Shown here piece by piece: positions 7,717-25,529 of a stretch of DNA of 64,000 bases; the first letter of the stretch is position 1, and each line of letters begins with the position of its first letter. The position numbers and the translations under genes are program-made. The notes beneath the pieces are model-generated. The model worked only from the letters and a program-made list of their open reading frames with translations, did no database searches and was not told where the DNA came from. Source of the DNA: a virus. The stretch is taken from the IMG/VR virus record IMGVR_UViG_3300042317_001497; one strand, given 5' to 3'.

Positions 7717-7798
7717 CCTAAACCTATGTGGCATAACAACTTAGGATCATTATACTCCGCAAAATTTTATGTAACTCCTTATGCCACAAGGATTTATG
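7717..7798. repeat. 82 bp paired-palindrome element, copy 1
   Basis: cctaaacctat-gtggcat-aacaacttagg / 24 nt / tgtaactcctt-atgccac-aaggatttatg. Confidence 0.85.
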
Positions 7799-7947
7799 AT
7801 GATTTTTGACGCAAAGACCGTGCTGCAAAAATTTTTCTCATTTGGCATGAAATTATATTCGAAAAATTGCAAAGATTTCTCTTGAAAGCGTCGATAAATA
7901 CTGTATAATTAAAGCACAAAGAGAACGATAACGCAAAGGACAAGAAA

Positions 7948-8377
7948 ATGAACAACAACGAAATCAAGCTGGGAGATGTGGTGGTGTGGAACTTTGTGTT
8001 TGACGTTCCGGAAGAGGATGGTGTTGTTGTAGGGTTGGACGGGGATAAAGTTCAAGTTGAGTATGTTGGATACATAATTGGTGGTGGTTCTAAGGTATGT
8101 CGGGAATGGCTGAACGTTGACGAAATCATGCTGGAATCGGAATACAATTCGCAGGTTTTCTAAGGTATTGACAAACACTTAGCCGATAAACTATAATAGA
8201 ATCAACACAAGAGAAAAAGGAAAAGAAATGACCATTCAAGTACAACACACCATTCGCCGCCTAGTTGCACATCATGGATATTCCGCAACATTTGTTCAGC
8301 ATATGGGCGAAGGCATTAGCCTCTATAGCATTGGTGGAATTATGTATCGTATTCGTGGCGATGGTACGATTCTCTAA
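7948..8377 (+). CDS. Two small hypothetical ORFs (7948-8163, 8228-8377)
   Basis: Each follows a TTGAAA/TTGACA...TATAAT promoter and a purine-rich leader; the second (49 aa) was translated manually. Confidence 0.65.
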
Positions 8378-8384
8378 AACTTGA

Positions 8385-8466
8385 CGTAAACTCTTACTGC
8401 TAAACGACTTACGACGAACGCGGCCGCAAAAATTTGCTGTAAGTACTTACCATATATAGACTTAGG
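8385..8466. repeat. 82 bp element, copy 2
   Basis: cgtaaactctt-actgcta-aacgacttacg / 24 nt / tgtaagtactt-accatat-atagacttagg. Confidence 0.9.
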
Positions 8467-8608
8467 GCTAATATAATGTTTAAGAGAAAATATTCTTTTG
8501 TTTTGGCATGAAATTATATTTGAAAAATTCCAAAAATTTCGCTTGCAACCTAAAGAATACTCTGTATAATGTCGATATAAGAGAAAAGGGAACGATAAAG
8601 AAAAGGGA

Positions 8609-9492
8609 ATGAAAATGATCACGCTGAACACTGTTGCTGAACTGACCAACTTCCTGAACAACAACGATATGCCCTCTCTGGTTGGAGAGGTTGTTTTCGC
8701 TGGTGATCTTCTCAGCCATGTTCGATCTCTCAACAATGCCATCAGTATCGACGAGGAAATCGGGTTTTGCGATGATGGTGGGGAGATTGTGATTGACGAT
8801 AACGGTAACGTTGTGAGCGATATGTATCTTCCGTAAGGGTATTGACAAGCAAAAATTGATAGGTATAATAGGAAGAAAGAAAGAGAGAAAGAAAATGCAG
8901 TTTGCTCTTGGTGATAAGGTGAAGGTTGACGGTAGGCTTGGACAGATCATTCTCTGGCATTTCGATGAGGGGAATATCTGGCACGTTGAGATTGACGGGG
9001 ATGAGTATGAGTGCTACGATGAGGATATGGAATTGATTTCCTAAAGAGGTAATAAGAATGTTTCTCACGTTTGACGATTTTTTGTTGTTGGGTGGTTTGC
9101 TCAGTTTTTGTGCTTTTATCACCTATACTGTGCATGAGGTGGGTAACGCTATCCGTTCTATGCTGGACATGGACAACTAAGCAAAGGAAAAGAAGATGAA
9201 TCACTGTGAAGCTGTTAAGATGGTGAAGGGAAAGGGTAATAAGAATACCCGTAAGGTGGGCAACAATACCTATGCGGAAATTCTTCCTGATGGTAGCGTG
9301 GGCATTATGCTACATAGTACCTATGTTGTTAAAATTCATCCCGACAATAGTGCTACCCTCAATACTGGGGGATGGTATACTAGCACCACGAAGGATCGAA
9401 TCAACAAGTATTCGCCCGTGCGTGTGTATCAAAAAAGGGGTGAATGGTATCTGAACAACGGTACACCATATGAGGATGGTATGGTGGTGTGA
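8609..9492 (+). CDS. Small hypothetical ORFs (8609-8836, 8895-9044, 9196-9492)
   Basis: ORF track plus purine-rich leaders; 9196-9492 carries GGWYTSTTKDRIN, a motif typical of a conserved phage family. Confidence 0.65.
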
Positions 9493-9522
9493 ACATCTGT
9501 ACGCTACTATACAAAAAATAGA

Positions 9523-9604
9523 CGTAAAGCCTTGACCCTAAACGACTTAGGGCGAGGCGGGCCGGCCCGGCTCGACGTAAGTACTTATGCCACAAGGGTT
9601 TATG
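9523..9604. repeat. 82 bp element, copy 3
   Basis: cgtaaagcctt-gacccta-aacgacttagg / 24 nt / cgtaagtactt-atgccac-aagggtttatg. Confidence 0.9.
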
Positions 9605-9734
9605 GCAAGTTTTGACGCAAGTGCTGTGCCACAAAATATTTTCTCATTTGGCATGAAATTATATTTGAAATTTCTCAAGATTTTGCTTGAAAGCGTCGAA
9701 TATATCTGTATAATGAAAGCACAGGAGAAAAACG

Positions 9735-9908
9735 ATGGAAAAGATGATTGACGAAAACGGCGAAGAATGGGTCGTGGGTTATGGAGAGGATGACGTTATG
9801 GATTTCGACGATTATTCGTGGGATCCGATCATGGGTGATGCCGATGAGCACATCGAAACGGACGATGAGTGGCTGGACGATTTTCAGGGTGAAGAAGAAT
9901 TTGCTTGA
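9735..9908 (+). CDS. Very acidic microprotein (57 aa)
   Basis: Manual: MEKMIDENGEEWVVGYGEDDVMDFDDYSWDPIMGDADEHIETDDEWLDDFQGEEEFA*; AGGAG RBS. Confidence 0.65.
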   Translation: MEKMIDENGEEWVVGYGEDDVMDFDDYSWDPIMGDADEHIETDDEWLDDFQGEEEFA

Positions 9909-10157
9909 AAGGAAAATGGTATGCTAGGGGCTATCCTGTTCGTGCTTTCATACATTGGACTTTTTTACGTTTGCGTGACTTGCAAGGAATAAAAAGGTAT
10001 AAGAATGAAAAACTGGATCTGCTACAATTTGTTTGGTGAGCATCCCGATGATGTGGACGCTTTCGGAATGATTAGTGGCTTGGGTATTCAAGCGTTTCTA
10101 ATCGGTTGGGCCGTCTATCTTTTTGTTTACGTTCCCTTCTTTTACTTTGGATGAAAA

Positions 10158-10334
10158 ATGAATATCTCTCAACTAAGCAAATGTACAGTACAAACCGCTT
10201 TAAGGATTGAGCAAATTCGTTTGCAATATGCTTTGAGCGAATCGGATAAAGAAAATATTAAAAATAGTATTAAGGAATTGTGTGCTGAACTACTGTATAG
10301 GTGGAAAAACGAGTTGCAAAACCTTAGCCCATAA
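10158..10334 (+). CDS. Hypothetical protein (58 aa); stop codon lies inside element copy 4
   Basis: Manual translation MNISQLSK...ELQNLSP*. Confidence 0.55.
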   Translation: MNISQLSKCTVQTALRIEQIRLQYALSESDKENIKNSIKELCAELLYRWKNELQNLSP

Positions 10335-10396
10335 GGAGTTACGACAAATTTTCGCCGCAAAATTTTCCCTAAGTACTTATGTACCAATAACTTACG
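10315..10396. repeat. 82 bp element, copy 4
   Basis: tgcaaaacctt-agcccat-aaggagttacg / 24 nt / cctaagtactt-atgtacc-aataacttacg. Confidence 0.9.
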
Positions 10397-10559
10397 ATAA
10401 GTTTTGACGCATATCGTATGCCAAAGCAAAATATTCTTTTTTGGCACGATATTCGCTGTGAGAAACCTTACGACATTGTAAGGAAACTACCAAAGATTTC
10501 GCTTGAAACCCAAAGAAAACTCTGTATAATGTCGGTATAAGAAGAAAGAGAGAAAGAAA

Positions 10560-10889
10560 ATGAAAACCAAGTTCCCTATCGTCGAAAACGCCAAGCGTCA
10601 AGCCAGACTGTGCTTCCTCGGGATTGCGATTCCTCACCAACCGTCCCTTGCGGATGGGGTGTATGGCCCGATCCGTAGTGAGAAGGTGCTGAAGTTCAAT
10701 CGCAAAGCCCTAAAGAATCTGGGCAAGATTCGCAAGGAAAAGGCTGATCCCCGCCTTGTTGGGGGTGAGGATCGCATGATTGTAAAGGTTGGCAAGCCGG
10801 GTTCGGCCGAAAGGGTTGCTGCTCTGGAGTCGCAATATGCCGCGATTCTTGCTTGTGGAGAGGAAGTATCCCCCTTTTCGGAGGGGTGA
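10560..10889 (+). CDS. Hypothetical basic protein
   Basis: ORF track; promoter and purine-rich leader upstream. Confidence 0.7.
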   Translation: MKTKFPIVENAKRQARLCFLGIAIPHQPSLADGVYGPIRSEKVLKFNRKALKNLGKIRKEKADPRLVGGEDRMIVKVGKPGSAERVAALESQYAAILACGEEVSPFSEG

Positions 10890-10917
10890 TCTTCTGTACA
10901 CTGTACAAAAAACTCGA

Positions 10918-10999
10918 CGTAAAGCCTTGCAGCATAAGGACTTACGGCGAATTTTTGCGGCCGAGCTTGACGTAAGTACTTATATACCAACGACTTACG
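10918..10999. repeat. 82 bp element, copy 5
   Basis: cgtaaagcctt-gcagcat-aaggacttacg / 24 nt / cgtaagtactt-atatacc-aacgacttacg. Confidence 0.92.
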
Positions 11000-11173
11000 T
11001 TCAATGCTTATATATTAGGCGTTTCTGCCTATATTCTGATCACTAGCAAATCCTGTGCCAAACTTGCTTCTCCAACCTTACAGCATTGTAAGGAAACTTT
11101 TTCTGATCTAGGCTATTGACATTGGACGATAATACTGGTATAATGATAGCACAAGAAAGAAAGAGAGAGAAAG

Positions 11174-11851
11174 ATGAATAGCAATATGATTGCAAAAGAG
11201 TTGAAGAAGTTGGGCTATACGCTGAAGAAGACTTCGGACATCGAAGCCCGTTGGATGGTCAGTTCTGACGTTCTCACCTACCATTGGGATTTCAAGGATT
11301 TGAAGGGTGTTCAGCGGTTCATGACCGATGAGCGAGCGTTGTATCGATATGCCAAAGCGAACGGTGCGACCACCCGATAGTGGGGGTTGACGATCAGAAA
11401 AAACTTCGCTAGAATACCAACACAAGAAAGAGAGAACAGAATGATTCAGATTGGTGATAGGGTTCAGGTTGGTTCAAGGATTGGTGTTGATCTGGCGTGG
11501 GCTGTGGTGGTGAACATCCTGCCAGCAATCGGGGACAGGGTAGCTATGTATTGTGTTCGGTTCGATGCCACTACCTCGAAACTGAATGAGTGCTGGGTGG
11601 ATGAGGGTATTGTGTATGGTCCGTTTCTTGATCAAAACTTTGGATGGAATTGAAAGGCTATACAAATGTTCTCACCGATGGAAAAAATTTGGATGAGCCT
11701 TGGCTTGCAAGGTGCTTTGGAAATGATGGACGCATCATGTTCTCTGGCCGAAAGGCTCACGGAAGAATGCGTGACTAATCCGGCAGTGAAAGATGCTCTA
11801 ATTCGAAGCATTGCTGCTGAAATTATAGGCAGTCGCCAAAGTATCTCCTAA
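11174..11851 (+). CDS. Small hypothetical ORFs (11174-11380, 11441-11653, 11666-11851)
   Basis: ORF track; the last stop codon lies in the left arm of element copy 6. Confidence 0.6.
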
Positions 11852-11928
11852 GTGCTTGCTATATAAAGACTTACGACAAACGGGGCGCGCCGGGCTTGAT
11901 GTAAGTACTTACCCCATAAGACTTTACG
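11847..11928. repeat. 82 bp element, copy 6
   Basis: cctaagtgctt-gctatat-aaagacttacg / 24 nt / tgtaagtactt-accccat-aagactttacg. Confidence 0.9.
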
Positions 11929-12084
11929 ACAACTTAGCAAATGGTGTGCCAAACCTCCACGAAATTACGAAAAGTTTTGTCAAAATCTTTTGACAATAAA
12001 ATTTCTGGATTTCTCTTGAAAGCTCAAGATGAGCATGGTATAATGTCGATATAAGAAGAAAGAAGAAAAGAAAGAGAGAAAAAA

Positions 12085-12246
12085 ATGGAATATCTGGATT
12101 ACGATCTGATGTCCGATTGCTGCGGTTCTGGTGTGGGCTTTCAAACCGGTGAGGGTGAGGACCGAATCGGAATTTGTATGGAGTGTCAAGACTGGTGTGG
12201 TGTGGTGGAAGATATTCCGGAAGATGAGGCCGCTAGTCTCAGCTAA
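12085..12246 (+). CDS. Acidic Cys-rich microprotein (53 aa)
   Basis: Manual: MEYLDYDLMSDCCGSG...GICMECQDWCGVVEDIPEDEAASLS*. Confidence 0.6.
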   Translation: MEYLDYDLMSDCCGSGVGFQTGEGEDRIGICMECQDWCGVVEDIPEDEAASLS

Positions 12247-12653
12247 TCCTGCGGATTTGGGCAAGCTGGGTATAGTCAGCAAGCTAGGGGAACCTTTCAA
12301 TATTGCAAGAAAATTTTCTAGTTGACAACTAAAGATTAGACTGTAGAATGTCGATATAAGAAGAAAGAGGAAAAAAGAAATGAAAACTTCACATCAAAAA
12401 GCTGTTGAAAGAATGGATCGGGAAACTAACCGTGCTATTAAACAGGTTAAGTTGTTGGAAAAACTCTATCTGGAAATGATGCAGAAGAAAGAGAAGGTTG
12501 GTAAATGACCACTATTATTATCATAAACGCTTGGATTTTTACCATCCTTGCTATGTATGCTTTTGCTAACGTGGCTTTCTGGTTGTTTGCTCAGGCTTTT
12601 GGTGTTGTTGATAATTATCTGCAAAATCAGTATTGGAAGAATAAGGAATAAAA

Positions 12654-12884
12654 ATGATTACTGTTGAACAAATTAGAGAATTGACCGATACTTACCTTGA
12701 GGGTTGTGAGGTTACTATTACCCGTTCGGGTTGTGGTTGGTCTACCCCTTGTGGTTGGCAAGTTTCTATTATTAGTGATATTCCCGGCGATCAGCATACA
12801 ATTTATTTGCGTGATGATAATACTGTGGATTCTGCTTGGTCTAAGATTACTACTCTTGCGGATAATGCTTTGAACCCCGCATAA
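12654..12884 (+). CDS. Hypothetical protein
   Basis: ORF track; AAGGA RBS. Confidence 0.6.
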   Translation: MITVEQIRELTDTYLEGCEVTITRSGCGWSTPCGWQVSIISDIPGDQHTIYLRDDNTVDSAWSKITTLADNALNPA

Positions 12885-13090
12885 TTAAAGAAAGGCGACA
12901 CGGATGGTCGATATTAACTGGGTGCAAATAGGTGTGGGATTTATTGCTGGCGTGTTGTGTTCTTGGTTTGTTTCTGATTTGGTTTTTTATGTAAGGAATA
13001 GTGAGGATAGCCATGATTAATTCGGATTCTATTATTCTGACCATTTCTTTTGTGGCTGGTTGCTTGGTTGCTTGGATTGTAAATTCTTAA

Positions 13091-13172
13091 CGCAAACCCT
13101 TGCCCTATAAAGACTTAGGGCAAACCGGGGCGGCCCCGCGAATCGTAACTCCTTTGATAGCATAGACTTACG
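13091..13172. repeat. 82 bp element, copy 7
   Basis: cgcaaaccctt-gccctat-aaagacttagg / 24 nt / cgtaactcctt-tgatagc-atagacttacg. Confidence 0.9.
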
Positions 13173-13320
13173 ACAAGCATTGACGCAAAAGCTGTGCCAC
13201 AAAAATATTTCCCGTTTGGCACAGAATTATATTTGAAAAATTCCAAAGATTTCGCTTGCATTGGCCGATAAACACTGTAGAATGACAGCATCACAAGGGA
13301 AACCACTAAGGGAAATACCA

Positions 13321-14043
13321 ATGCTTCACGATTTTGATGAAATCAATCTGATTCTGGCCGGTATGGTGGACGAGGGAATTGTTGAGCCGATTGACGATCC
13401 TAGCGTGGAAGTTGATTTTTGGGATTGGGCCGACATTGTTGGGGTTGTGGACGAGTGTGTACCGGAAGAGTATTCGGACAACCTTTCAATCTAGAAAGAT
13501 TCAAGAAAAGGTATTTGACAAGCCGATAATAGTAGTGTAGGATAGAGTGAAAGAAAGAGAAGGTGAATGATGAGTCGATATGATAACTGGAATGATGATG
13601 ACGATTCGGATGACGGCTATGATGCTGCTCGTGACGCTTACCTGACCGGCGAAGGTCCGGCTGTTACTCGTAGCCAAAGGCAAGAGGAAGAGGATTTGCG
13701 AGAAGAGTATCGCCGGAATCGGTGGTAGTCTCTTGACAAGCTAAGTTTTTTTGATAGACTGTGACCATAAGAAAGGAAAAGAAACATGAGCCATCCTGAT
13801 CCCCTTTACGATTTTGATAATTCTTATGATGATGATGCTGTTTTCTATGGAGAAGATAGTTCAAGCTATCATCCCGATGCGGAACATGAGGTTGAAAGTA
13901 ATTTTGATGATGAAGAAGATTTGGAGGACGAGGAGTATGATTCTTACAATGATAGCATGGATGGGGATTTTGATTCAGCCATGCGTGATGCGGGATTCGG
14001 AACGGATGAAGATTACGGTTACTACGGTGGAGAAGACTACTAA
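13321..14043 (+). CDS. Three acidic microproteins (13321-13494, 13567-13728, 13786-14043)
   Basis: D/E-rich translations, each with its own promoter-like TTGACA/TTGCAT element upstream. Confidence 0.65.
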
Positions 14044-14891
14044 TGAAATGCCGATTCTTTGATATTGTTGTGGAAAATGAAAATGGTGAACAGCCGATTT
14101 CGAGCGAGTATGTTCTAGACTTGCCGGAACATAACATGACAGATGCTGTTGACCGACAAGAGTTTCTTGGTATCATGTTTGATACTGTTGTGGCCGCTAG
14201 TGGCTTGAATGTTTGTTCTTTTAGTTCAGAGGAGATTGGAATATGAAATGTGTTGTAACTCATACCGATACTTTCGGTGGTGAAGCTAATTATGGTTGGG
14301 TGAAGCGTTGGGAGTTTGTTCCCAAGAATGACTCTCAGCGTAGCGTAACATATCATGCTAAGAAACTGGCTGGCATGACGGGCGTTAAGAGTGATACTTA
14401 TGATTTTGGCGATGGCTTTACAATTAAGCCTAGGGGTTATGCTCAAGTTATATTTGTAGACTTTGAATAATAACAGAAAGGATATTGATATGTATTATCG
14501 TAAGATTGCTACTGGTATGATTGAGTCTACATATGAAAATTATAAGGATTGGAAAAAGAATCACGAACTTTTCCATGAACTTAATAAATATAATACTTTT
14601 ATTCCGGTATGGAGAGATCTGAGCGATAATACTAAGTGTGCTGCGATTGAATATGTATATAATAATCGTGATACTCTAGAGTTACATTCTGGGATTGTTG
14701 AATCTTGGGTTCAGGCAACAGCATACTTTATGTTATTTGATTTTACTGCTATGTTGTTGCATAATGACGAAGAGCCAGAATTGGAAATCTTTTTTGATGA
14801 TCTAGATTTTATGATGGATGAGGAAACTCTAGAAGATAGTGATGTGCAGGAGATTTTGGGTATTAGCCCAGATTTTACGGGCAAATTCTGA
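14043..14891 (+). CDS. Coupled hypothetical ORFs (14043-14246, 14243-14470, 14463-14891)
   Basis: Overlapping stop/start codons; 14243-14470 carries HTDTFGGEANYGWV. Confidence 0.65.
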
Positions 14892-14899
14892 GAATCCGC

Positions 14900-14981
14900 T
14901 CTAAACCCTTGGTACATAAGTACTTAGGGCGAGCGGGGCCGCAAAAATTTGACGTAACTCTTTATGTATCAACACTTTACA
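14900..14981. repeat. 82 bp element, copy 8
   Basis: tctaaaccctt-ggtacat-aagtacttagg / 24 nt / cgtaactcttt-atgtatc-aacactttaca. Confidence 0.9.
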
Positions 14982-15064
14982 TCTAAAAAAAATTTTCTCA
15001 AGATTCCCTCTTGCATTGGTCGATAATAGATGGTAGAATGACAATACGAAAGAAGGGGTGAAAC

Positions 15065-15328: not shown

Positions 15329-15393
15329 CAAATGTCGATAATAGTTGTAGAATGCTGAGAGTTGAACGGTTGTTTTCTAACGAAAGGGTTGAT

Positions 15394-15795: not shown

Positions 15796-15825
15796 TAGCA
15801 GCTTCTGCCCAAAGAATGCCCAACT

Positions 15826-15907
15826 CCTAACCCTTTGACACCAAAGGACTTAGGACGCGGGCGGGCGGCCCGTTTCGTCGTAAGTCTTTATATATCAACA
15901 CTTTACG
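15826..15907. repeat. 82 bp element, copy 9
   Basis: cctaacccttt-gacacca-aaggacttagg / 24 nt / cgtaagtcttt-atatatc-aacactttacg. Confidence 0.9.
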
Positions 15908-15988
15908 ACAATCTTTTTCGCTCAAGCTTTTCCTCTTGACAGGCCGATAATAGTAGTGTAGAATACAGGGAATCAAAAGGAGAAAAAG

Positions 15989-16889
15989 ATGCTGTTTACG
16001 CCATATGCTTTGACGGATAAGGTAACTCGCAAGGTTAGTGATGAGGGTATGATTGAGTTTAGTGGGCTGTCGGTTGGGGGTCGTCATTTTTCCATAGTCA
16101 CTCGACTTGACGATGCTAACCGCTGGGTCAACGGAGAGTTGATTCAAAATGCTTTCCCGTATCTTGGTGCGGATGATCGTGAGATTCTCAAAACGGGAAT
16201 TGATGCTCAGGGTTGGGAAGAAATGTTCCCAGAATCGGAGGAGGAGGAAGTATGAATACCGATACTTATATGGTTATGAGAGGATATAAACTTTTGGGTT
16301 ATGTTGAGGCCCAGAGTACCTATCATGCTATTAGATTAGCGGAAAAGTACTATGGGGATAATATCATCGTGGAAAGAATCACGCATAACTGTCCCGCCTA
16401 ACCCTGCCGGGTTGGTTGAGTGGGTATAGTCAGCCAGTAGTCGGGGCTTGACAAAAGGTTTTTAATAGAGTATATTGAGCAGAAAGGGAGAGAATTATGT
16501 TGACAACTGAAGAACGAGATGCTGTTTCTGATTGTGTGAGAAATTTTGCCATTTGTCTGATAAATGCTACCACTGTTGATGAGCAAGCTGTGCATACTGA
16601 AATGGATACTTTCTTTGAGTTCTTTTGTAAGGCTCTTGAGATTGCCAGAACTGATGGTATCGTTAGAGTTCGTGAGTCTATTGGGGCTAGTAATAACTAA
16701 GGGGATACCATGAGAGTTTGTCCATGTGGGTCTGGCAAGAAAAGTTGGTGGGAAAGTGATGCTAGGGGAATTCCACTGGGTAGGGTTTGTTTGGAGTGTT
16801 TAGATAAAAAGTTGAGTAAGTATCGACCGGAAGTGTTGACCAACTCCAACTACTACGCCGACGAGCCTATTGAGGCCGAGGACTATTAG
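15989..16889 (+). CDS. Small hypothetical ORFs (15989-16255, 16252-16401, 16497-16700, 16710-16889)
   Basis: ORF track and manual translation; 16710-16889 starts MRVCPCGSGKK (SEC-C-like motif). Confidence 0.62.
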
Positions 16890-16890
16890 T

Positions 16891-16972
16891 CGTAAGTCCT
16901 TATCCTTAAAGCACTTAGGGATAGGGCGAGCGGCCGAAATCGACGTAAGTCCTTACCTCTAAACGATTTGCG
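16891..16972. repeat. 82 bp element, copy 10
   Basis: cgtaagtcctt-atcctta-aagcacttagg / 24 nt / cgtaagtcctt-acctcta-aacgatttgcg. Confidence 0.92.
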
Positions 16973-17034
16973 TCTAAAAAGATTTTTTCAAGAAATACTC
17001 TTGACAAGACGATAATAGATGGTAGAATGATTGA

Positions 17035-17642
17035 AGAACAAGTGAAAACTTGTTGGTTGTGTCGGGCCGAGCAGCCGGTAAAAACGGTAGTTGATGTCCT
17101 AGGAAACGTCTTCTACAATCGGTCCTAACAATACAAATCAGTCAGAAGTATAATCGTAAAGTAAGAGAGGCCCGTGTTGACACGGATAACCTAGCGTAGT
17201 ATACTCTGACTGACAAACATCCGTGGGTCCATGCTCAAGGGACTAGATAGGGATAAGCCATTACGATAAACCTACCGGCACATTGAAATAGAAATACCGG
17301 TGGGGTTGACAGCGGGCTTATACGCTGTATAGTAGTGCCTATCTATGTGGGATTGCGTCCAGACCACGGCCAATACAATCCGGTATTATCCTTCATCGGG
17401 TAATAGAGTGAATTAACACCGCAACATTACGCTTGCGTTCTATCTTTCATCGGGTAGAATCACTGAAATAACAGCCGGATACCGAACAACCAGTAACCGT
17501 CGCCAAGAGCCAGACCAGAGTGGGTCTTATGTGCTAGCAATGCCCGCTTTGCAGGGAGGATTTCCGTGGACGGTTTACACAATGTCCGTAACAGGGTAGC
17601 ACGGTGAGCAAGAATCGGGGCGTAAAAGATTCGCTGGTTTTT
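17035..17642 (+). ncRNA. Large (~600 nt) structured noncoding RNA candidate
   Basis: No credible ORF; strong promoter TTGACA(17001)...TAGAAT(17023); many local and long-range helices; ends in a hairpin plus T tract. Confidence 0.72.
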
Positions 17643-17693
17643 AATACTTGACAGATAGAGAATAGATAGTAGAATGGTGGAAAAGGAGAAAAA

Positions 17694-18847
17694 ATGAGTC
17701 TTTTAGATGTGTTGCTGAGTGAAAACACTGAACGCCTGCCTACTTTCAACGAGTTGAAAAAGATTTTACTAGCAGTTTGTCCTAATGGGCAAATTGAATG
17801 GGATAATAATAATCAGATTATTTTTTATACTAACTTGACCGATAACGAAGACGGAACACTCAGGGAGTTTGAATGATGACTGTATCCGAACTGATTGAGC
17901 AGTTGAAGAATTACCCGTCCGATATGAGAATTCTTACCCTTGGATATGAGGGTGGGTATAATGATGTGGACCTCAAGACTGAGGATATTGTTTTTAATTT
18001 TTCCAAGAATGATACTTGGTATTATGGGCCTCATGAATGTGTGAAGTTTACCGATGGGGATACTGGTACAAAGTGCTTGGTTGTTGTGAGGACTAAATAA
18101 TGAACTGGCATTATGGACAACCTATTGTAAATGGATCATATATTTGTTGTATAACAGGTTATTCTTCTCCTATTGATCTTATTTGGAATAAAGAAGAGGG
18201 TGGCTGGGGCGATTGGTGGCACGGTGAATATGACGATGGTTTAGCCGAATGGAATCAGTTTGACAATGATCTAGTGGTATGCTATATTGGTTTTGATGAG
18301 ATTCCTATGCCGGAGAATTGGTGATGGAATGGTTTAACTCTCATAAGAATCCGCCTGCTGTTGGGCAGAAGGTCTATTACTTTGGTCCCAATATTGGATT
18401 GTTTATTGGTCATTATTCATATGAAGAACGATCATTTGAAACATACTCCTATAATGAATATAATCAAAAGGTGGTGGATAAGGTATTAAGTATTTGTCCA
18501 CACGTTTTTACTAATATGAGTTTTGGGGTATGTGATGCTTGTGACGCTCCGTTCTGGCTTCCATATGATGAGGAACGAGCAAAGAGTTGGTGTCCCATTA
18601 TCCCAGAAGAATATACTCAGGGGTTGTATGACTAATGGCTAAAAACTTTAAAGATTTGCATACCATAGATGCTAAAGATATGACTCGTGATCAGGCTATG
18701 ATTTATGTTATTAACTTTTTTAACTCTCGTATGGCAACAATGAGCAATGCTCACAGAAATAAGGTTAAAGAGTTAATTGGTATTCATGAGATTGCTACTA
18801 GTGAACTAGTTAATAAATATCTGGAGTTAGTTCTTGAAAACTCTTAG
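17694..18847 (+). CDS. Coupled small hypothetical ORFs (17694-17876, 17873-18100, 18100-18324, 18318-18635, 18635-18847)
   Basis: ORF track; consecutive stop/start overlaps. Confidence 0.65.
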
Positions 18848-18848
18848 A

Positions 18849-18930
18849 TGCAACTTCTGACAGCATAAGGACTTAGGAGAAATCCGGCGGGCGAAATTTG
18901 TTGTAAGTACTTGACCGCAAAAGACTTACG
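18849..18930. repeat. 82 bp element, copy 11
   Basis: tgcaacttctg-acagcat-aaggacttagg / 24 nt / tgtaagtactt-gaccgca-aaagacttacg. Confidence 0.88.
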
Positions 18931-19174
18931 TTCAAAAATATTTTTTAAAGACTTCTCTTGACATTTGCCGATAATAGAAGTATACTTAAATCAAGACGAT
19001 AGATGAGGGCCGCTGGCAGAATGATATCAAAGAAGCCACGGTTAAATGCAAAGCCGAGTATGGCATAACCCAATCTATTTGTCTTGCCTAATCCTACGGA
19101 TTTGGTGGTCTTGGCGATAGTCAGCGAGAATACGGGGTCTTGACAAGATCGTTTCTATAAGGTATAGTATAAGC

Positions 19175-19600
19175 ATGAAACAGAACAAACTACATGGCGA
19201 AGTTCGATTTCACCTGAGTAATGGCCAGCATTATATGCACTGGCAAATAAAGGTTAAGCAGGGTGGGGAAACAGTTGATGTATATTACGTTGACCCCAAA
19301 AAATATCAGTTAGAGATGCGGGGTTGTAAGTTGTGGAATAGGCCGAATAAGGCTAAACAGGTGTTTGAGGCTGGTGTACATGATGTGAGTGGATGGGTGC
19401 GATGTGAAGAAGTTATGCTAAGAAAAGATTTTCATCCAGCTTTGCCAGTTGACAATCTTGAGAAGTTATACTACAATCCGTTGAGAGATCCGCACTGGCG
19501 ACGAGAAAGTGATAGTAACGAATTCATTTGGGATGGTAGCGAGTATGCTACTCTCTTGACTAACGGTAAACAAGTTTATATTTTGGAGGAGAGAGAATGA
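19175..19600 (+). CDS. Hypothetical protein
   Basis: ORF track; promoter upstream. Confidence 0.7.
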   Translation: MKQNKLHGEVRFHLSNGQHYMHWQIKVKQGGETVDVYYVDPKKYQLEMRGCKLWNRPNKAKQVFEAGVHDVSGWVRCEEVMLRKDFHPALPVDNLEKLYYNPLRDPHWRRESDSNEFIWDGSEYATLLTNGKQVYILEERE

Positions 19601-19971
19601 TTAAGGTTGAACTGGGTGTTCGTGAGGCTCTTACCATGATTTCTAATGGTTGCAGTCTGGATATGTTCGAGAAGATTGTTTGCTCACTGGAAGTGGCACT
19701 GGGTGTGAACCAGCGTTGTATGGTGACAATCACCGGAGGTATGAATCTGGATAATCGCATCCCTTGCATCAAGGCGATTCGGATTGCTACTGGCTGGGGT
19801 TTGAAGGAAGGTAAGGAGTGGACCGATGGTATGGTGGGTGGCTGGAAGTATGATAGGTTCGTGCCTGCTACCCCAAACACCAAGCAGAGCATCACCCTAA
19901 AATCGCCCGAACTGGCTGAGAAGTTGCTGCGTGATCTGGTTGGGCTGGGTTGTGAGGGCTTTCTCTCTTGA
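19597..19971 (+). CDS. Protein with ribosomal L7/L12 C-terminal-like domain
   Basis: NRIPCIKAIRIATGWGLKEGKEWTD matches the L12 CTD pattern K-I-x-x-IK-x-x-R-x-x-TG-x-GLKEAK. Confidence 0.7.
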   Translation: MIKVELGVREALTMISNGCSLDMFEKIVCSLEVALGVNQRCMVTITGGMNLDNRIPCIKAIRIATGWGLKEGKEWTDGMVGGWKYDRFVPATPNTKQSITLKSPELAEKLLRDLVGLGCEGFLS

Positions 19972-20053
19972 CCTAAAGCCTTGTCTCTAAAGAACTTAGA
20001 GCAAGGCGGGCCGGCCAAATTTGACGTAACTCCTTATGCTTCAATAACTTAGA
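19972..20053. repeat. 82 bp element, copy 12
   Basis: cctaaagcctt-gtctcta-aagaacttaga / 24 nt / cgtaactcctt-atgcttc-aataacttaga. Confidence 0.9.
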
Positions 20054-20255
20054 ACAAATCATGAGAATACCAAAAAATCATTCATGCAAACACCTTGACG
20101 ATGACGATACTATATGGTAGAATGATAGCATCACACGACAAGACGCTGGTTGAACCCGAAAACACAAAGTTTCGACCTAGCCCTTGACAAGTGATAATGT
20201 TGGATGTATAATTGGTTTACTTGGTTCGATAACACTTTTGGAAAGGTTTTTTACA

Positions 20256-20507
20256 ATGAAGAAGTTTAGCTTTGTGGTTGATGTGGTTGCGGATGAGCTT
20301 GATCGTGACGGCGTTGTGGATTCGATTCGTTCTTGCCTGAGCGATAGCCTCCCTGGCGATGTTCATGCGAATGTCAAGGCTGGCGAGGTCAAGGCTTTTT
20401 CGGAGCAGGGTTATAAGGTCTGGCGTGCTAGGGTCACGGGCGTGACTGCGGAGCAGGCCGGTGATGCCCACTCTGGTAAGGTTGAGAAGGAAACAGTCGA
20501 GGCTTGA
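20256..20507 (+). CDS. Hypothetical protein
   Basis: ATG at 20256 after GGAAAGG; ORF track frame. Confidence 0.65.
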   Translation: MKKFSFVVDVVADELDRDGVVDSIRSCLSDSLPGDVHANVKAGEVKAFSEQGYKVWRARVTGVTAEQAGDAHSGKVEKETVEA

Positions 20508-20554
20508 TCTTGACAAACTGGACTATGCCAGTATAAATAGATTTTAGGCATAGT

Positions 20555-20725
20555 GCGGCGGGATTCGTCCCGCGTAATGATGTGGGCTCAGACCCACCTA
20601 GCAGAGTCTAACCAACTAATAACCGGCGTGGTTGCCGGGAAGGGGTCTGCTGCTAGTAATATAACGATGGTAAAGTGATCCCACCATCAAACCGTATAGC
20701 CTCTATGGGACGCCATAGGGGCTTG
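20555..20725 (+). ncRNA. Small structured RNA candidate (five consecutive stems)
   Basis: Hairpins at 20558-20573, 20582-20597, 20598-20656 (nested 20623-20638), 20667-20690, 20699-20722; no ORF. Confidence 0.45.
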
Positions 20726-20759
20726 CGGCATTGAGTGGATATGGTATAATAGATGGCAC

Positions 20760-20831
20760 GGCCCCATAGTTAAATGGATATAATAAGTGACTTCTAATCT
20801 CTAGTTGCAGGTTCGATTCCTGCTGGGGCTA
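20760..20831 (+). tRNA. tRNA-Arg(TCT)
   Basis: Acceptor GGCCCCA/TGGGGCT, loop CTTCTAA, T-loop TTCGATT. Confidence 0.88.
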
Positions 20832-20835
20832 TTAT

Positions 20836-20909
20836 GGGGGCGTAGATCAATTGGTTAGATCGCTAGCTTGTCACGCTAGAGGTTGCGGGTTCGAGTCCCG
20901 TCGCTCTCG
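20836..20909 (+). tRNA. tRNA-Asp(GTC)
   Basis: Stem CTAGC/GCTAG, loop TTGTCAC, GGTTCGAG, G73. Confidence 0.9.
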
Positions 20910-20990
20910 CTAAGTTGTTGGTATATAAAGACTTAGATCAAATCCGGGCGGCCCCGTTTGCCGTAAGTCCTTATGCCACAAGCCTTTGCA
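20909..20990. repeat. 82 bp element, copy 13 (abuts the tRNA-Asp 3' end)
   Basis: gctaagttgtt-ggtatat-aaagacttaga / 24 nt / cgtaagtcctt-atgccac-aagcctttgca. Confidence 0.9.
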
Positions 20991-21066
20991 TCAAAAAATA
21001 ATTTCTTCAAGAATTGGTCTTGACTAGCCGATAATATAGTGTAGAATCGGTAGACAAGGGAGAATA

Positions 21067-21780
21067 ATGATGAAAACTGCAAATGGTAATGATAAGTTGG
21101 GTAAGGAAAATTGTATTGTGGTTTCGCGTCCGGTTGGCGATAGTTGTCCGTCCGATTGTGATTTTCTCGGTAACGGATGCTATGCAGAAGATTTGGAAAA
21201 TATCTATCCCGGTGTTCGTCCTGCCGGTATGCAAAATCTTGTTACAGAAAAGAATAGTATTCGCTCCATGCTGGTGGATGCCGTCAAGAAAAATAAAGAT
21301 GTTCGCTGGCATGAGCGTGGCGACTTTTTCAAGTATGGTGAACTTGACAATGAATATGTTGATAATGTATTGTGGGCCTGTGAGAATATTCTTGCCAGTG
21401 GTGGTAGTCTGCCGACCATGTGGGCTTATACCCATATTTATGACACTAGATTGTCTATGGAACTTGGCAAGTATATCAATATGTATGCTAGTATCCATGA
21501 TGGTGAAGATATGAAACAGGCTAAGGCTGCTGGTTTCAAACTGTTCGCATGGTGTGATAGTGATACTAAAATTGCCCCTAAGCGTCCGCGTGGTAAGAAT
21601 AAGGTTGCAGCATGGCGATCAGCACTGCCGAAACTAGTTGTGCTGGAAGGTGAAAAGTTTGTCACTTGCCCGGAAATTCGTCGTGGTCGTGGAGTTGTCA
21701 CTTGCACAAAAACCAAAAATAGCGTACACTGTGACTTGTGCGTTCGTGGTTTGGCTAATGTTTTGTTTCCTGCACACTAA
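21067..21780 (+). CDS. Gp88-like Cys-rich phage protein
   Basis: N-x-KL...SC-x3-C-x5-CYA...VRWHERGDF...WAYTH and C-terminal C..C..C; pattern of the gene product 88-like family. Confidence 0.6.
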   Translation: MMKTANGNDKLGKENCIVVSRPVGDSCPSDCDFLGNGCYAEDLENIYPGVRPAGMQNLVTEKNSIRSMLVDAVKKNKDVRWHERGDFFKYGELDNEYVDNVLWACENILASGGSLPTMWAYTHIYDTRLSMELGKYINMYASIHDGEDMKQAKAAGFKLFAWCDSDTKIAPKRPRGKNKVAAWRSALPKLVVLEGEKFVTCPEIRRGRGVVTCTKTKNSVHCDLCVRGLANVLFPAH

Positions 21781-21791
21781 GGAGTTTAATA

Positions 21792-22028
21792 ATGTCTAAA
21801 TATTATATCAAGTGTGGTACTCTGGAACTAATTTACTCTACAGATAAAAGTTCTGTTGAAGCGGCGGTTACAAGTTTGTTTGAGAGTAATAAGTTTGATA
21901 CATTAGATGAATACTTCTATATTGATGAGCGTGGTTTTAGAGACTATCTAACTGCTGATAAGCAAACGGAAGTTTTGAAACTGAATGTAATCGCAAAGAT
22001 GGGTGGATGGACGCTAGGTAACGACTAA
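21792..22028 (+). CDS. Hypothetical protein
   Basis: ORF track; AAGGAG RBS. Confidence 0.65.
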   Translation: MSKYYIKCGTLELIYSTDKSSVEAAVTSLFESNKFDTLDEYFYIDERGFRDYLTADKQTEVLKLNVIAKMGGWTLGND

Positions 22029-22035
22029 AACTAAC

Positions 22036-22117
22036 CGCAAACCCTTACTGCATAAGCACTTAGGGCGAGCGGGGCCGGCCAAATTTGACGTAAGTGCAAT
22101 GGCCTCAACCACTTAGG
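22036..22117. repeat. 82 bp element, copy 14
   Basis: cgcaaaccctt-actgcat-aagcacttagg / 24 nt / cgtaagtgcaa-tggcctc-aaccacttagg. Confidence 0.88.
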
Positions 22118-22185
22118 ATTTTTTAAAGAAAAGGTTGACAAGTGCCGATAACTATGATATGATTAAACGGAAAGGATGGGACAGC

Positions 22186-22542
22186 GTGATCCAATGGATT
22201 GGGGTACTGATTGCTCTGTTAGGTTTGGCATATACTGGCGTTAAAGATTATCAAAAAGGTGATTTAAAAATTCCAAAAATACCATCTAGACAAAAGATTG
22301 TGTATCCTATACAATACTGTCTAATGGCTTATGATCCTAACATAGACAAAGTTTTTTATTTACACGACAATGGAATATGGCATGACTATGCACCACCTCA
22401 ACGACGATATTCGCCCACGACGCAACCACAACAAAATCAAGGTCAAGGTCAAGAAGCCTTGGGAGTTGTCAACGGGACACAAGGAACATCGGGATACCGT
22501 TATGGACAATCGCCCCAAGCGGTTGCGAACCCGATCCGCTGA
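22186..22542 (+). CDS. Membrane-anchored hypothetical protein (GTG start)
   Basis: TM helix IQWIGVLIALLGLAYTG; Q/G-rich C-terminus overlaps the next ORF. Confidence 0.55.
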   Translation: MIQWIGVLIALLGLAYTGVKDYQKGDLKIPKIPSRQKIVYPIQYCLMAYDPNIDKVFYLHDNGIWHDYAPPQRRYSPTTQPQQNQGQGQEALGVVNGTQGTSGYRYGQSPQAVANPIR

Positions 22543-22576
22543 AAAGCGTCGGGCTTGCGAGGATTATCACTATTGA
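22370..22576 (+). CDS. Small basic protein overlapping the previous ORF in another frame
   Basis: KIKVKVKKPWELSTGHKEHRDTVMDNRPKRLRTR; composition looks protein-like. Confidence 0.5.
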   Translation: MEYGMTMHHLNDDIRPRRNHNKIKVKVKKPWELSTGHKEHRDTVMDNRPKRLRTRSAEKRRACEDYHY

Positions 22577-22592
22577 TTATAATAGGTAGATT

Positions 22593-22663
22593 GCCCGCAT
22601 AGTATAATGGTAATACAGTTGATTTGTAATCATCTAATACTAGTTCGATTCTAGTTGTGGGCT
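22593..22663 (+). tRNA. tRNA-Thr(TGT)
   Basis: GCCCGCA/TGTGGGC, loop TTTGTAA. Confidence 0.82.
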
Positions 22664-22664
22664 C

Positions 22665-22735
22665 TCCGGGATGGTGTAACAGTAGCACAGAACACTTTGG
22701 ATGTTCTTGTCTAGGGGCGGAACCTAGTCCCGGAA
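22665..22735 (+). tRNA. tRNA-Gln(TTG) with atypical T-loop GGCGGAA
   Basis: TCCGGGA/TCCCGGA, stem GAACA/TGTTC, loop CTTTGGA. Confidence 0.78.
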
Positions 22736-22739
22736 TTTT

Positions 22740-22811
22740 ACGAAGGTAGCATAATGGTAGTGCCGCAAACTGTTAATTTGCTCTGTGTAGGTTCGACTCC
22801 TACCCTTCGTG
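22740..22811 (+). tRNA. tRNA-Asn(GTT)
   Basis: ACGAAGG/CCTTCGT, loop CTGTTAA. Confidence 0.88.
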
Positions 22812-22814
22812 CTT

Positions 22815-22899
22815 GGCTGGATGGCAGAGTGGTCTAATGCACCGGTTTACTAAACCGACGAGGAGAAATCCTCCACAAGTTCGAATCTTGTTCCAGCCG
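22815..22899 (+). tRNA. tRNA-Ser(ACT), A34 anticodon
   Basis: GGCTGGA/TCCAGCC, G73, long variable arm GAGGAGAAATCCTC, loop TTACTAA. Confidence 0.82.
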
Positions 22900-22903
22900 C
22901 TTA

Positions 22904-22985
22904 GGTAGATTACTCAAGCGGACAACGAGGGCAGACTGTAAATCTGCTGGCATTGCCTTCGCTGGTTCGAATCCAGCATCTACCA
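22904..22985 (+). tRNA. tRNA-Tyr(GTA)
   Basis: GGTAGAT/ATCTACC, stem GCAGA/TCTGC, loop CTGTAAA, variable arm. Confidence 0.9.
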
Positions 22986-23066
22986 CTAAGTTGTTGGTAT
23001 ATAAAGACTTAGAGCAAATTCAGCGGGCCGTTTTTGACGTAAGTGCTTATCAGATAACGACTTAGG
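22985..23066. repeat. 82 bp element, copy 15 (abuts the tRNA-Tyr 3' end)
   Basis: actaagttgtt-ggtatat-aaagacttaga / 24 nt / cgtaagtgctt-atcagat-aacgacttagg. Confidence 0.9.
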
Positions 23067-23123
23067 ATTTTCTAAAGACAGGACTTGACTCTTGCCGATA
23101 AGTAGAGTATGATTGAAAGACAC

Positions 23124-23199
23124 GGGGCGTAAGGTAAGCCGGTTGCATCCGTCACTCTTATAAGGTGATCATAGGTACGTTCGACTCGTACACGCCCTA
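23124..23199 (+). tRNA. tRNA-Ile(TAT)
   Basis: GGGGCGT/ACGCCCT, stem TCACT/GGTGA, loop CTTATAA, GTTCGA. Confidence 0.75.
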
Positions 23200-23239
23200 C
23201 TTTTAAGCTTCGGAGGCTGACGTTTGAGTTGCGATGGCT

Positions 23240-23311
23240 GGCCCCATAGTCTAACGGCTAGGACGACAGCCTTTCACGCTGTAGATCGGAGTTCGATTCT
23301 CCGTGGGGTCA
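23240..23311 (+). tRNA. tRNA-Glu(TTC)
   Basis: GGCCCCA/TGGGGTC, loop CTTTCAC. Confidence 0.9.
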
Positions 23312-23351
23312 CTTGACAAATAAAAAAAGAATGGTATACTAGAAAACCCTT

Positions 23352-23424
23352 GGGGGTGTAACTTAGCGACTAAAGTAGCGGTCTTTTAAACCGTTTATCG
23401 TGGGTTTGAGTCCCACCGCCCCCA
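23352..23424 (+). tRNA. tRNA-Lys(TTT)
   Basis: GGGGGTG/CGCCCCC, loop CTTTTAA. Confidence 0.85.
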
Positions 23425-23478
23425 CTTGACAAGTATGTTTGGTTGGTGTATAATGTTGGAAAGAAAGGAAGGTTGATT

Positions 23479-23649
23479 ATGCGTTATAGTGATGATTACG
23501 AACAGTATGATTATGACTATGATGAATTGGTAGAAAATGCCGATGATCTTGGTCTAGATGAAGAACCTTGGATGGATGAAGAAGAAGATGACGAGGTTCC
23601 TTCTTATGGAAAGAATTATTATCCTGACATAACAGAAGACGATTGCTAA
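23479..23649 (+). CDS. Very acidic microprotein (56 aa)
   Basis: MRYSDDYEQYDYDYDELVENADDLGLDEEPWMDEEEDDE... Confidence 0.65.
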   Translation: MRYSDDYEQYDYDYDELVENADDLGLDEEPWMDEEEDDEVPSYGKNYYPDITEDDC

Positions 23650-23654
23650 TTTTT

Positions 23655-23739
23655 GTGGATGCTTCTAGGTGGGACTAGACTCTTTTCTTTATCCTTTCTT
23701 TCTTTTCTTGAATAGCCGGTTCGAATCCGGCCATCCACA
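23655..23739 (+). pseudogene. tRNA-like element lacking an anticodon arm
   Basis: Acceptor GTGGATG/CATCCAC and T-arm GCCGG-TTCGAAT-CCGGC are intact; the middle is a pyrimidine tract. Confidence 0.55.
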
Positions 23740-23744
23740 CTTAT

Positions 23745-24254
23745 ATGAATGTTTTGAGCCAAAAGCCCGATGATTTTCGTCGTACTCCAGACGGTAAAGT
23801 TATTCAAGGTGCTAGCCACACTTGCCGTGTGCTAAATCATAAAGAGCGTAATAAGATTATTATTAAGGCTGTTTGTGATCTTAGGAAAATTAAGGATCAG
23901 TTTGATACTATAGCTTGTTGTGGCGTAAGTGGTTTGATGGTTGTTCCACAGATCGCTGAACTTCTAGATAAGCATATTTTAATTATTCGCAAAAATGAAA
24001 GATGCTACAGTGAATTTAGAACTGAGGGCGTTGCTCCTTTTCAATATGTGGTTGTTGATGATCTTGTTTGCTCTGGGGATACGATAAAGAGAATACAGAA
24101 TACTATTAAGGATGAATACCCAAGAGCAATTTGTAAGGGTATTTATTTCTATATTCCAGACCAGTGTGTTTATCGGCCAGACGAGGATGGCTCTAAACTA
24201 TGCTTGAGGGATCTAAAGGCCCCGCTCCTAAACCTAGGCCACCAAAAGACTTAG
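23745..24254 (+). CDS. Type I phosphoribosyltransferase-like protein
   Basis: PRPP-binding motif VVVDDLVCSGDT; CCGVSG loop; stop codon lies in element copy 16. Confidence 0.78.
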   Translation: MNVLSQKPDDFRRTPDGKVIQGASHTCRVLNHKERNKIIIKAVCDLRKIKDQFDTIACCGVSGLMVVPQIAELLDKHILIIRKNERCYSEFRTEGVAPFQYVVVDDLVCSGDTIKRIQNTIKDEYPRAICKGIYFYIPDQCVYRPDEDGSKLCLRDLKAPLLNLGHQKT

Positions 24255-24308
24255 GACGAACCGGGGCGGCCCCGCCCGACGTAAGTGCTTATATACCAAC
24301 GACTTGCG
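24227..24308. repeat. 82 bp element, copy 16
   Basis: cctaaacctag-gccacca-aaagacttagg / 24 nt / cgtaagtgctt-atatacc-aacgacttgcg. Confidence 0.9.
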
Positions 24309-24408
24309 TCACGAAATTTTTCCGCAAGTTTGCCCCTTGACACTGCCGATAATAGATGGTAGAATCAGCGTATCGGAACGAAGAATCAGTAACACGAAAG
24401 GGTTGATT

Positions 24409-25356
24409 ATGCCTGCTATGGTCGAAAAGATGATGTTTGTTGGTGCTACCCCTTGGCATGGTGAGGGTACGCAGCTCGATGAGAATCCCTCTATTTCTGA
24501 GGCGATTACCGCTGCTGGTCTGGATTGGGAAGTTGGTACGAAGCCGTTGTTTACGTCGGAAGGCGAGGAAGTCAACGCCAAGGCGACTTTCCGTAAGACC
24601 GATAATAGGGTGCTGGGAGTTGTGGGTCCGCGTTATACCCCTCTCCAGAATCAAGATGCTTTTGATTGGTTCCAGCCGTTTCTGGACGCTGGCGAGTGCC
24701 AACTGCACACCGCCGGTTCGCTCAGTGAGGGCGAGAAGGTTTGGGTGTTGGCTCAACTCAATCGTGCGAACAGCGAAATTGTTCCCGGCGATGAGGTGAG
24801 CAAGTTTATCCTGCTGAGTAACAGCCACGACGGTACAACGTCGATCCGCGTCGGATATACTCCGATCCGCGTGGTCTGCGTGAATACTCTCGCTGCTGCC
24901 CACTCCAACAAGGACAGCCAGTTGATTCGGATTCGTCACACACGCTCCAGCAAGACCAATCTGGATAACGTGCGAGACATCATGGATAATATCAACGTGC
25001 AGTTCGAGGCGACTGCGGAACAGTATAGGTTCCTCGCCTCTAAGGATTTCAATCAGAACGATATTCGTAAGTATGTCAAGATTCTGCTGGGGATTGATAA
25101 GACCCCGGACGAAGATATCAAGACTCGTACCCGCAATATCATGGATGAAATCTTGACGCTTGTGGAAGGCCCGAAGCAGAGTGCTACGAATGTTCGTGGA
25201 ACATGGTGGGCTGCCTATAATGGCTTCAATGAGTATCTGAACTATAGCAAGGGTCGCACGGTGAGCAATCGCCTCGACTCACTCTGGTTCGGACAGAATG
25301 GGGTTGATAACGTCAAGGCACTCAATACCGCAGTGGAGTTTGCGAACGCCGTCTGA
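24409..25356 (+). CDS. DUF932 (TIGR03299-like) phage/plasmid protein
   Basis: PWHGEG, LGVVGPRYTPLQN, TAGSLSEGEKVW, LLSNSHDG, TPIRVVCVNT, RIRHT, GTWWAAYN. Confidence 0.88.
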   Translation: MPAMVEKMMFVGATPWHGEGTQLDENPSISEAITAAGLDWEVGTKPLFTSEGEEVNAKATFRKTDNRVLGVVGPRYTPLQNQDAFDWFQPFLDAGECQLHTAGSLSEGEKVWVLAQLNRANSEIVPGDEVSKFILLSNSHDGTTSIRVGYTPIRVVCVNTLAAAHSNKDSQLIRIRHTRSSKTNLDNVRDIMDNINVQFEATAEQYRFLASKDFNQNDIRKYVKILLGIDKTPDEDIKTRTRNIMDEILTLVEGPKQSATNVRGTWWAAYNGFNEYLNYSKGRTVSNRLDSLWFGQNGVDNVKALNTAVEFANAV

Positions 25357-25381
25357 TCTTTTCGTGTCACGATGAAAAGGG

Positions 25382-25422
25382 GGAGGGCCGCGGCTGGGAA
25401 ACTGGCTGCGGCCTTCTCTTTT
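25382..25422 (+). terminator. Intrinsic terminator
   Basis: GAGGGCCGCGGCTGG-GAAA-CTGGCTGCGGCCTTCTC followed by TTTT. Confidence 0.75.
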
Positions 25423-25447
25423 GGTTGCTGCGAAACGGTTCACTAGA

Positions 25448-25529
25448 CGTAAGTACTTGCAACATAAGGACTTACGGCGAACCGGGCCGCGAAATTTTGT
25501 CGTAACTTTAGTATTCATAAGGACTTACG
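25448..25529. repeat. 82 bp element, copy 17
   Basis: cgtaagtactt-gcaacat-aaggacttacg / 24 nt / cgtaactttag-tattcat-aaggacttacg. Confidence 0.9.

Follow-up and report, generated by a model that had tools for sequence, protein, structure and literature searches.

The stretch of viral DNA analysed in this study (IMG/VR record IMGVR_UViG_3300042317_001497), hereafter called the window, comprises 64,000 nucleotides with a GC content of 36% and is part of a large tailed phage. It carries genes for ThyX, a DNA ligase and UvdE, a rIIA-like gene and, between positions 7717 and 25529, 17 copies of an 82-bp element composed of two palindromic 29-mers, which is the subject of this report. The elements are set among small plus-strand open reading frames (ORFs), each group of which has its own host-type promoter, and they most likely serve as paired sites for a host DNA-bending protein upstream of these promoters. 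DNA of the phage is present in lake and freshwater metagenomes, and its largest relatives measure 220-244 kb. The source is probably a freshwater phage of ~200-240 kb, with a probable host among the Planctomycetota; ThyX homologues, rIIA matches and Atlas pointed out no host.

Geometry and distribution of the 82-bp element

All 17 copies listed in the original prediction were confirmed at their start positions, each with the layout 29+24+29 bp. The 29-mer follows the pattern YAA-N4-TT-N7-AA-N4-TTR with conserved flanks. Scored with a symmetric matrix, the 34 sites of the window reached 19-33 bits, compared with a best score of 9.9 in three shuffled windows. Contigs from an independent lake run were identical to long stretches of the array region, with zero differences. 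Among related IMG/VR loci (n=115), 504 site pairs were spaced at 53 bp, and any other short spacing occurred at most nine times; in whole genomes, the pairs were limited to one stretch of ~20 kb with up to 24 pairs. GTDB contained only 13 matches to the paired form; 12 lay on phage-like contigs that had been assigned to metagenome-assembled genomes (MAGs), marine ones included. Several GTDB MAGs include mis-binned phage contigs. The same 53-bp paired element occurs on the MAG contigs L203, L198 and L199, at least one of them marine (Tara Red Sea), so that it reaches beyond the lake clade; in L203 and L199 it precedes sigma-70-type promoters. Other lineages (L133, L134, L136, L137, L155, G015, G017 and G018) carry single 29-mers, or a 29-mer followed by a GC linker and a reversed sigma-54 box, and may represent intermediate forms of the cassette. 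The window itself contains single sites at 25585-25613 (20.9 bits; not included in the original prediction), 25733-25761 (20.5 bits) and 26929-26957 (23.9 bits).

The two 7-nt cores of one copy had been proposed to tend towards reverse complementarity, such that a single strand could fold into one long hairpin. In the window, 43 of 119 core positions matched, compared with 44.1 after permutation (p=0.61), and perfect complementarity was limited to copy 1; among 434 related elements, z was -2.2. The resemblance of the cores within a copy is a shared bias only, and 30 distinct cores were found among the 34 window sites. These data also bear on the suggestion that the elements encode RNA stems for processing or termination, to which the palindromic arms and the long hairpin predicted for copy 1 would be suited. 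None of the proposed pairings showed covariation or compensatory change across the 434 elements, however, the bottom strands of eight copies folded as DNA had no common fold, and no Rfam match was obtained. The probability of an RNA function is thus close to negligible.

Linkage to sigma-70-type promoters and helical phasing

A feature unmentioned in the original prediction is that 16 of the 17 window elements are followed, at a distance of 12-106 bp, by a sigma-70-type promoter on the same strand, and the remaining one by such a promoter at 116 bp. The first seven elements (with their promoters in brackets) are located at 7717-7798 (7882-7909), 8385-8466 (8543-8570), 9523-9604 (9687-9714), 10315-10396 (10503-10530), 10918-10999 (11116-11144), 11847-11928 (12016-12044) and 13091-13172 (13256-13283). 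Elements 8 to 12 lie at 14900-14981 (15011-15039), 15826-15907 (15936-15964), 16891-16972 (17001-17028), 18849-18930 (18958-18986) and 19972-20053 (20095-20123). They are followed by element 13 at 20909-20990 (21020-21047), whose slot was compared across 79 related loci, and by elements 14 to 17 at 22036-22117 (22135-22163), 22985-23066 (23085-23113), 24227-24308 (24337-24365, ahead of a DUF932 gene) and 25448-25529 (25542-25570). The linkage is shared by the related elements: 335 of 434 are followed within 150 bp by a sigma-70 promoter on the same strand, and nine are preceded by one.

The gap between the element and the -35 box is not evenly distributed. It clusters, in steps of ~10.5 bp, at 18, 28-29, 39, 50 and 60-62 bp, with a best period of 10.75 bp (R=0.63, n=515), and the periodicity persisted after removal of the modal gap class (R=0.48). 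For the orthologous promoter of the ORF at 21067 alone, the gaps were 18, 28-30, 39 and 49 bp. The centre of the proximal site consequently falls near -68, -79 or -90. Phasing of this kind is predicted for a protein that acts on one face of the helix.

The same data are relevant to the idea that the elements act as roadblocks or insulators, at which bound host proteins would mark module ends, stop read-through, isolate supercoiling between strong promoters that lie close together and replace the terminator hairpin of the promoter early stem-loop (PeSL) cassettes known from T4-type phages. Consistent with it, the region has few terminator-like sites (20, compared with 14.1+/-4.2 in shuffles), and several of the ORFs lying upstream stop at, or within, the left boundary of an element. 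Such a role would not call for phasing to the -35 box that follows, though, and we consider it improbable on balance.

Module exchange and the recombination-site reading

In the original prediction, the elements were interpreted as borders of early-gene modules and as sites of an integron- or Xer-like system. The first part holds, in that modules have been gained, lost and reordered in related phages, with junctions in or beside the elements: a relative with 97% identity (L118) differs from the window by several modules, and in L125 and L129 one module is located elsewhere. The second part, a site-specific system, does not. Switch points were mapped in 811 elements by comparing pairs with one flank in common and the other different. 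The junctions, expected within the 7-nt core, were scattered across the whole element (11+11 distinct cases in arm 1, 10+5 in arm 2, 22+5 in the linker, 6+7 in arm 3 and 5+21 in arm 4 or beyond; cases not independent), most commonly in the linker or after the right core. This spread is the pattern of homology-driven exchange at repeats, as described for PeSLs (PMC2839356). Genes for RecA- and RuvB-family proteins are present in the closest large relative.

For attC- or Xer-like sites, at which a recombinase of the host or an undetected one of the phage would excise and shuffle cassettes, the 11-7-11 layout and the change of modules at the elements can be put forward. IHF, the protein considered below, is moreover a cofactor of some recombinases. 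Searches of 27 large related genomes yielded no PF00589 tyrosine recombinase, however, and no resolvase was found in five related genomes; the lone weak PF00589 match proved to be an ATP-grasp-like gene. The attC core motifs (RYYYAAC inverse core and GTTRRRY core) were found at the element ends, on either strand, in 0/17 window and 0/581 related elements. Neighbouring copies in the window never have identical cores, and the arms share on average 2.2 and 3.0 of 11 positions with the E. coli XerC and XerD arms, with a spacer of 7 bp, not 6. In addition, hairpin pairings do not covary, and a group of related phages without 29-mer pairs (type B, see below) remains modular. Site-specific recombination at these elements is thus highly improbable and the integron/Xer reading, already largely refuted, fails, while the paired regulator or enhancer array, listed initially as an alternative, is the reading that these results support.

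Similarity to IHF sites and occurrence at chaperone promoters of the probable host

Canonical IHF sites contain two AA steps 9 bp apart, the motif WATCAA and a TTR four bases further on (PMC1874591). YAA and TTR are kept in 34 of the 34 window sites, with TTR on both sides, four bases past the AA step. Both AA/TT steps are found 9 bp apart in 27 of the 34 sites and at more than 90% per position in the relatives, and the full IHF consensus is matched by 2 of the 34, the right sites of elements 8 and 9. Judged by its letters, the 29-mer is a mirror-symmetric version of an IHF site that retains the steps and TTR but little of the ATC.

HU/IHF proteins are encoded in 41 of 41 Planctomycetota genomes, and no HU/IHF gene was found in five phage genomes. 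The single-site pattern had 76 matches in the 41 genomes, compared with 22 for the controls, three of the matches representing a phage contig. When Planctomycetota promoters were scanned with a matrix derived from the window only, the best score fell 30-70 bp upstream of the sigma-54 box in 10 of 13 hsp20 promoters (p=3e-5) and in the same slot in 14 of 19 groES loci (p=2e-6), where seven peaks were located at -53 to -55 and scores reached 19.7. The peaks cluster at -42/-44, -53/-55 and -65/-67. In sigma-54 systems, IHF acts between the enhancer and the promoter (PMC13682980), and the peak of the phage matrix coincides with this IHF slot of the host chaperone promoters.

Replacement by a second host motif and association with sigma-54 boxes

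At the ORF 21067 loci, ~17 of the 79 related loci lacked pairs of 29-mers (type A). Nearly all of these carried in the same slots a pair of TGCCA-N3-TGGCA palindromes (type B), spaced at 29 bp on either side of a comparable GC-rich centre and phased to the -35 box with a period of 10.25 (R=0.74). Of 12 large genomes, six had B pairs exclusively and five A pairs exclusively, and the remaining one carried A sites in single form only; the two kinds of pairs were never mixed. Relative L124 is type B throughout, yet its ORF 21067 protein is 92% identical to that of the window. In a quick gene tree of ORF 21067, types A and B were interspersed, requiring at least 4-5 changes, a figure from which the number of type switches cannot be counted because gene exchange confounds the tree. 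In type A and B phages alike, and at many window promoters (e.g. 15936-15964 and 24337-24365), a short conserved motif directly follows the -35 box.

Whole-array switching could in principle result from the exchange of a phage regulator, if the elements were operators for a phage activator or repressor whose specificity differed between the types. The phage-specific nature of the paired form (12 of the 13 GTDB matches on phage-like contigs) would suit this scheme. Against it, a search of the 12 genomes for type-specific or dimorphic DNA-binding proteins yielded nothing convincing, and each of the two motifs is found as a single copy at a set position in host promoters; such operators are very unlikely.

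On Planctomycetota chromosomes, the B motif was found ahead of hsp20, groEL, groES and clpB in 6 of 11 loci. Around groES, 9 of 12 B sites precede a sigma-54 box by 89-150 bp, where 0.5 would be expected, and an A-type site is located between the B site and the box (e.g. L355 and L357). The arrangement of B motif, IHF-type site and sigma-54 box before hsp20, groES/EL and clpB recurs in the Planctomycetota loci L354-L359 and L400-L460. Of 61 Bacteroidota, one had the B motif. Genome-wide, the exact motif was not enriched in Planctomycetota (15 sites, compared with 13 controls), and its position alone is informative. In this phylum, sigma-54 is predicted to control chaperone genes (PMC12316311). 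The position of the B motif at host chaperone sigma-54 promoters suggests that it is most likely an enhancer for a host sigma-54 activator, and points to Planctomycetota as the likely host phylum. No description of the motif as a candidate heat-shock enhancer was found in the literature.

Sigma-54 boxes are also present in both types of phages, chiefly within the first 3-8 modules. Most of them are reversed (124 reversed vs 44 forward in type A, 26 vs 3 in type B) and lie at a distance of 5-13 bp from where the element ends. Within the window, boxes of the -24/-12 type on the minus strand follow elements 3 (9617-9631, 12 bp past its end), 4 (10409-10423, with a forward box starting at 10442), 5 (11046-11060), 6 (11937-11951) and 7 (13185-13199). 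No gene for sigma-54 or for an enhancer-binding activator was found in the phages; PF00158 matches in the phages turned out to be RuvB.

These observations are relevant to a decoy array, in which high-affinity copies of the three parts of host sigma-54 chaperone promoters (IHF site, enhancer site and -24/-12 box), loaded into the early region, would trap the cognate proteins and mute the stress response, IHF pairs and enhancer pairs being two ways to hit one circuit. In line with this notion, the three phage motifs are found together at host chaperone promoters, whose genes are predicted sigma-54 targets (PMC12316311), the boxes mostly face backwards and lie hard against the element in a non-productive layout, and the corresponding regulators were not found in the phages. 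A sponge would, however, need neither helical register with a sigma-70 promoter nor a fixed spacing of 53 bp. IHF is abundant in cells, so that the 37 sites brought in by each genome would be too few to deplete it. Taken together, a decoy function, although the strongest of the alternatives, appears rather unlikely.

Proposed function of the paired elements

From the computed geometry, promoter linkage, phasing, agreement with the IHF slot of host promoters, exchange of motifs, spread of junctions and failure to find a recombinase, we infer that host IHF most likely binds both sites and bends the DNA upstream of the early promoters on a set helix face, raising their output or blocking silencing (confidence 0.62). 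Each 82-bp element would thus constitute a double-stranded DNA docking platform upstream of an early promoter read by host sigma-70, with two symmetric sites for a host protein of the IHF/HU family that flank a GC-rich centre at a distance of five helical turns and are in helical register with the promoter. Bound IHF would introduce two sharp bends in the same direction upstream of RNA polymerase. These bends could make the promoter stronger, or protect it against silencing and neighbouring transcription, as reported for IHF at the phage Mu early promoter (PMID 9082117). The element-plus-promoter unit, being repeated, would double as a homology patch, at which ordinary RecA/RuvB recombination would shuffle modules in a PeSL-like manner, as a by-product.

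Several points weigh against this proposal. Little is retained of the ATC in the E. coli IHF consensus (full WATCAA match in 51 of 2360 half-sites), so that the sites may be bound by a different host protein that shares this geometry. The related phages used in the phasing test are not independent, and many strong promoters in the array region have no element. The host-promoter test is inflated because the matrix favours AT-rich DNA, and its hsp20 and groES sets overlap (L355=L442, L354=L412). Activation alone does not explain the need for two sites at exactly 53 bp; nor does it explain the reversed sigma-54 boxes and the substitution by an enhancer-protein site, which keep the decoy and roadblock models alive. 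A broader scheme, which we put forward only tentatively as possible but doubtful, is that a widespread phage family assembles its early-promoter cassettes out of exchangeable components of the heat-shock switch that its host runs with sigma-54, i.e., paired IHF or enhancer sites plus parked sigma-54 boxes. Such cassettes might drive sigma-70 transcription while trapping or sensing the stress machinery, and whole arrays might be converted from one component to the other by concerted evolution.

Other features of the window

Ten tRNA calls are located at 20760-23425 (+); element 13 begins at the 3' end of tRNA-Asp and element 15 at the 3' end of tRNA-Tyr. A Pistol ribozyme (20517-20579, +; Rfam RF02679, 55.7 bits) lies between an ORF and the first tRNAs, and a phage tmRNA is found at 51079-51432 (+). 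A second inter-module repeat family of ~52 nt (D6), unrelated to the 82-bp element, is present at 12234, 19079, 25654, 28165, 28931 and 29154, with further copies near 16400 and 25925. Behind element 10, an ORF-poor stretch of ~600 nt (17035-17640) with several promoter-like sites is kept in the relatives L125 and L129; it has no Rfam match and is a candidate noncoding RNA. The ORF at 19597-19971 (+) shows a weak match to the C-terminal domain of ribosomal protein L7/L12 (E=2e-4). Divergent from the left edge of the array, a sigma-70 region-2-like gene (4840-5502, -) and a possible DNA-binding gene (4046-4876, -) are kept in 12 of 12 related genomes.

Comparison with known systems

The array represents a natural experiment in promoter design, with the same two-site platform at 10-24 promoters in one phage family, and with close relatives in which the platform was swapped wholesale between the putative sites of two host proteins while the GC centre and helical face were kept. 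Whether IHF-type sites activate promoters, or counteract the silencing of phage DNA that enters the cell, would be directly testable by reporter assays. Little is mapped of regulation in Planctomycetota, for which the analysis provides candidate motifs for IHF and for a heat-shock enhancer. It also offers a hint, from sequence, at the host of a group of freshwater phages that is abundant yet uncultured. No description of a promoter system based on such paired elements was found in the literature.

Palindromic repeats between small genes, with 11-bp arms and a short spacer, are shared with integron attC and Xer-dif (pdif) modules. Unlike in those systems, no integrase, core sites or conserved bottom-strand hairpin were found here, the spacers are unmatched, and there is one promoter per module. 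The sigma-54 architecture of enhancer, IHF site and -24/-12 promoter (PMC13682980, PMC12316311) has all three of its parts in the phages, matching the host chaperone promoters; in the phages, though, the parts are doubled, rearranged, mostly reversed and placed ahead of sigma-70 promoters, and a productive geometry is rare.

The lambda pL promoter is an IHF-assisted sigma-70 phage promoter. At the IHF-assisted early promoter of Mu (PMID 9082117), an IHF-type site reportedly lies upstream on a fixed helix face, as it does here. The elements differ from both in that two symmetric sites 53 bp apart take the place of one asymmetric site and are repeated at 15-24 promoters. PeSL cassettes of T4-type phages (PMC2839356, PMC4122927) resemble the array in two respects, both found here: repeated intergenic units with host sigma-70 promoters in a hypervariable early region, and repeats that act as homology patches for the gain, loss and shuffling of modules. 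In contrast to PeSLs, the array has no GC stem-loop terminator (linker covariation z=1.0, terminators not clearly enriched) and contains a rigid pair of palindromes that is phased to the promoter and can be exchanged for a second host motif. As to excised mini-circles, no joint between two elements was seen among the 15 listed of 51 joints in assembled contigs; these joints have short sides and probably stem from other phages. The system falls outside the integron/Xer family and, in its mode of action, resembles a PeSL cassette, minus the hairpin, joined to an IHF-assisted promoter.

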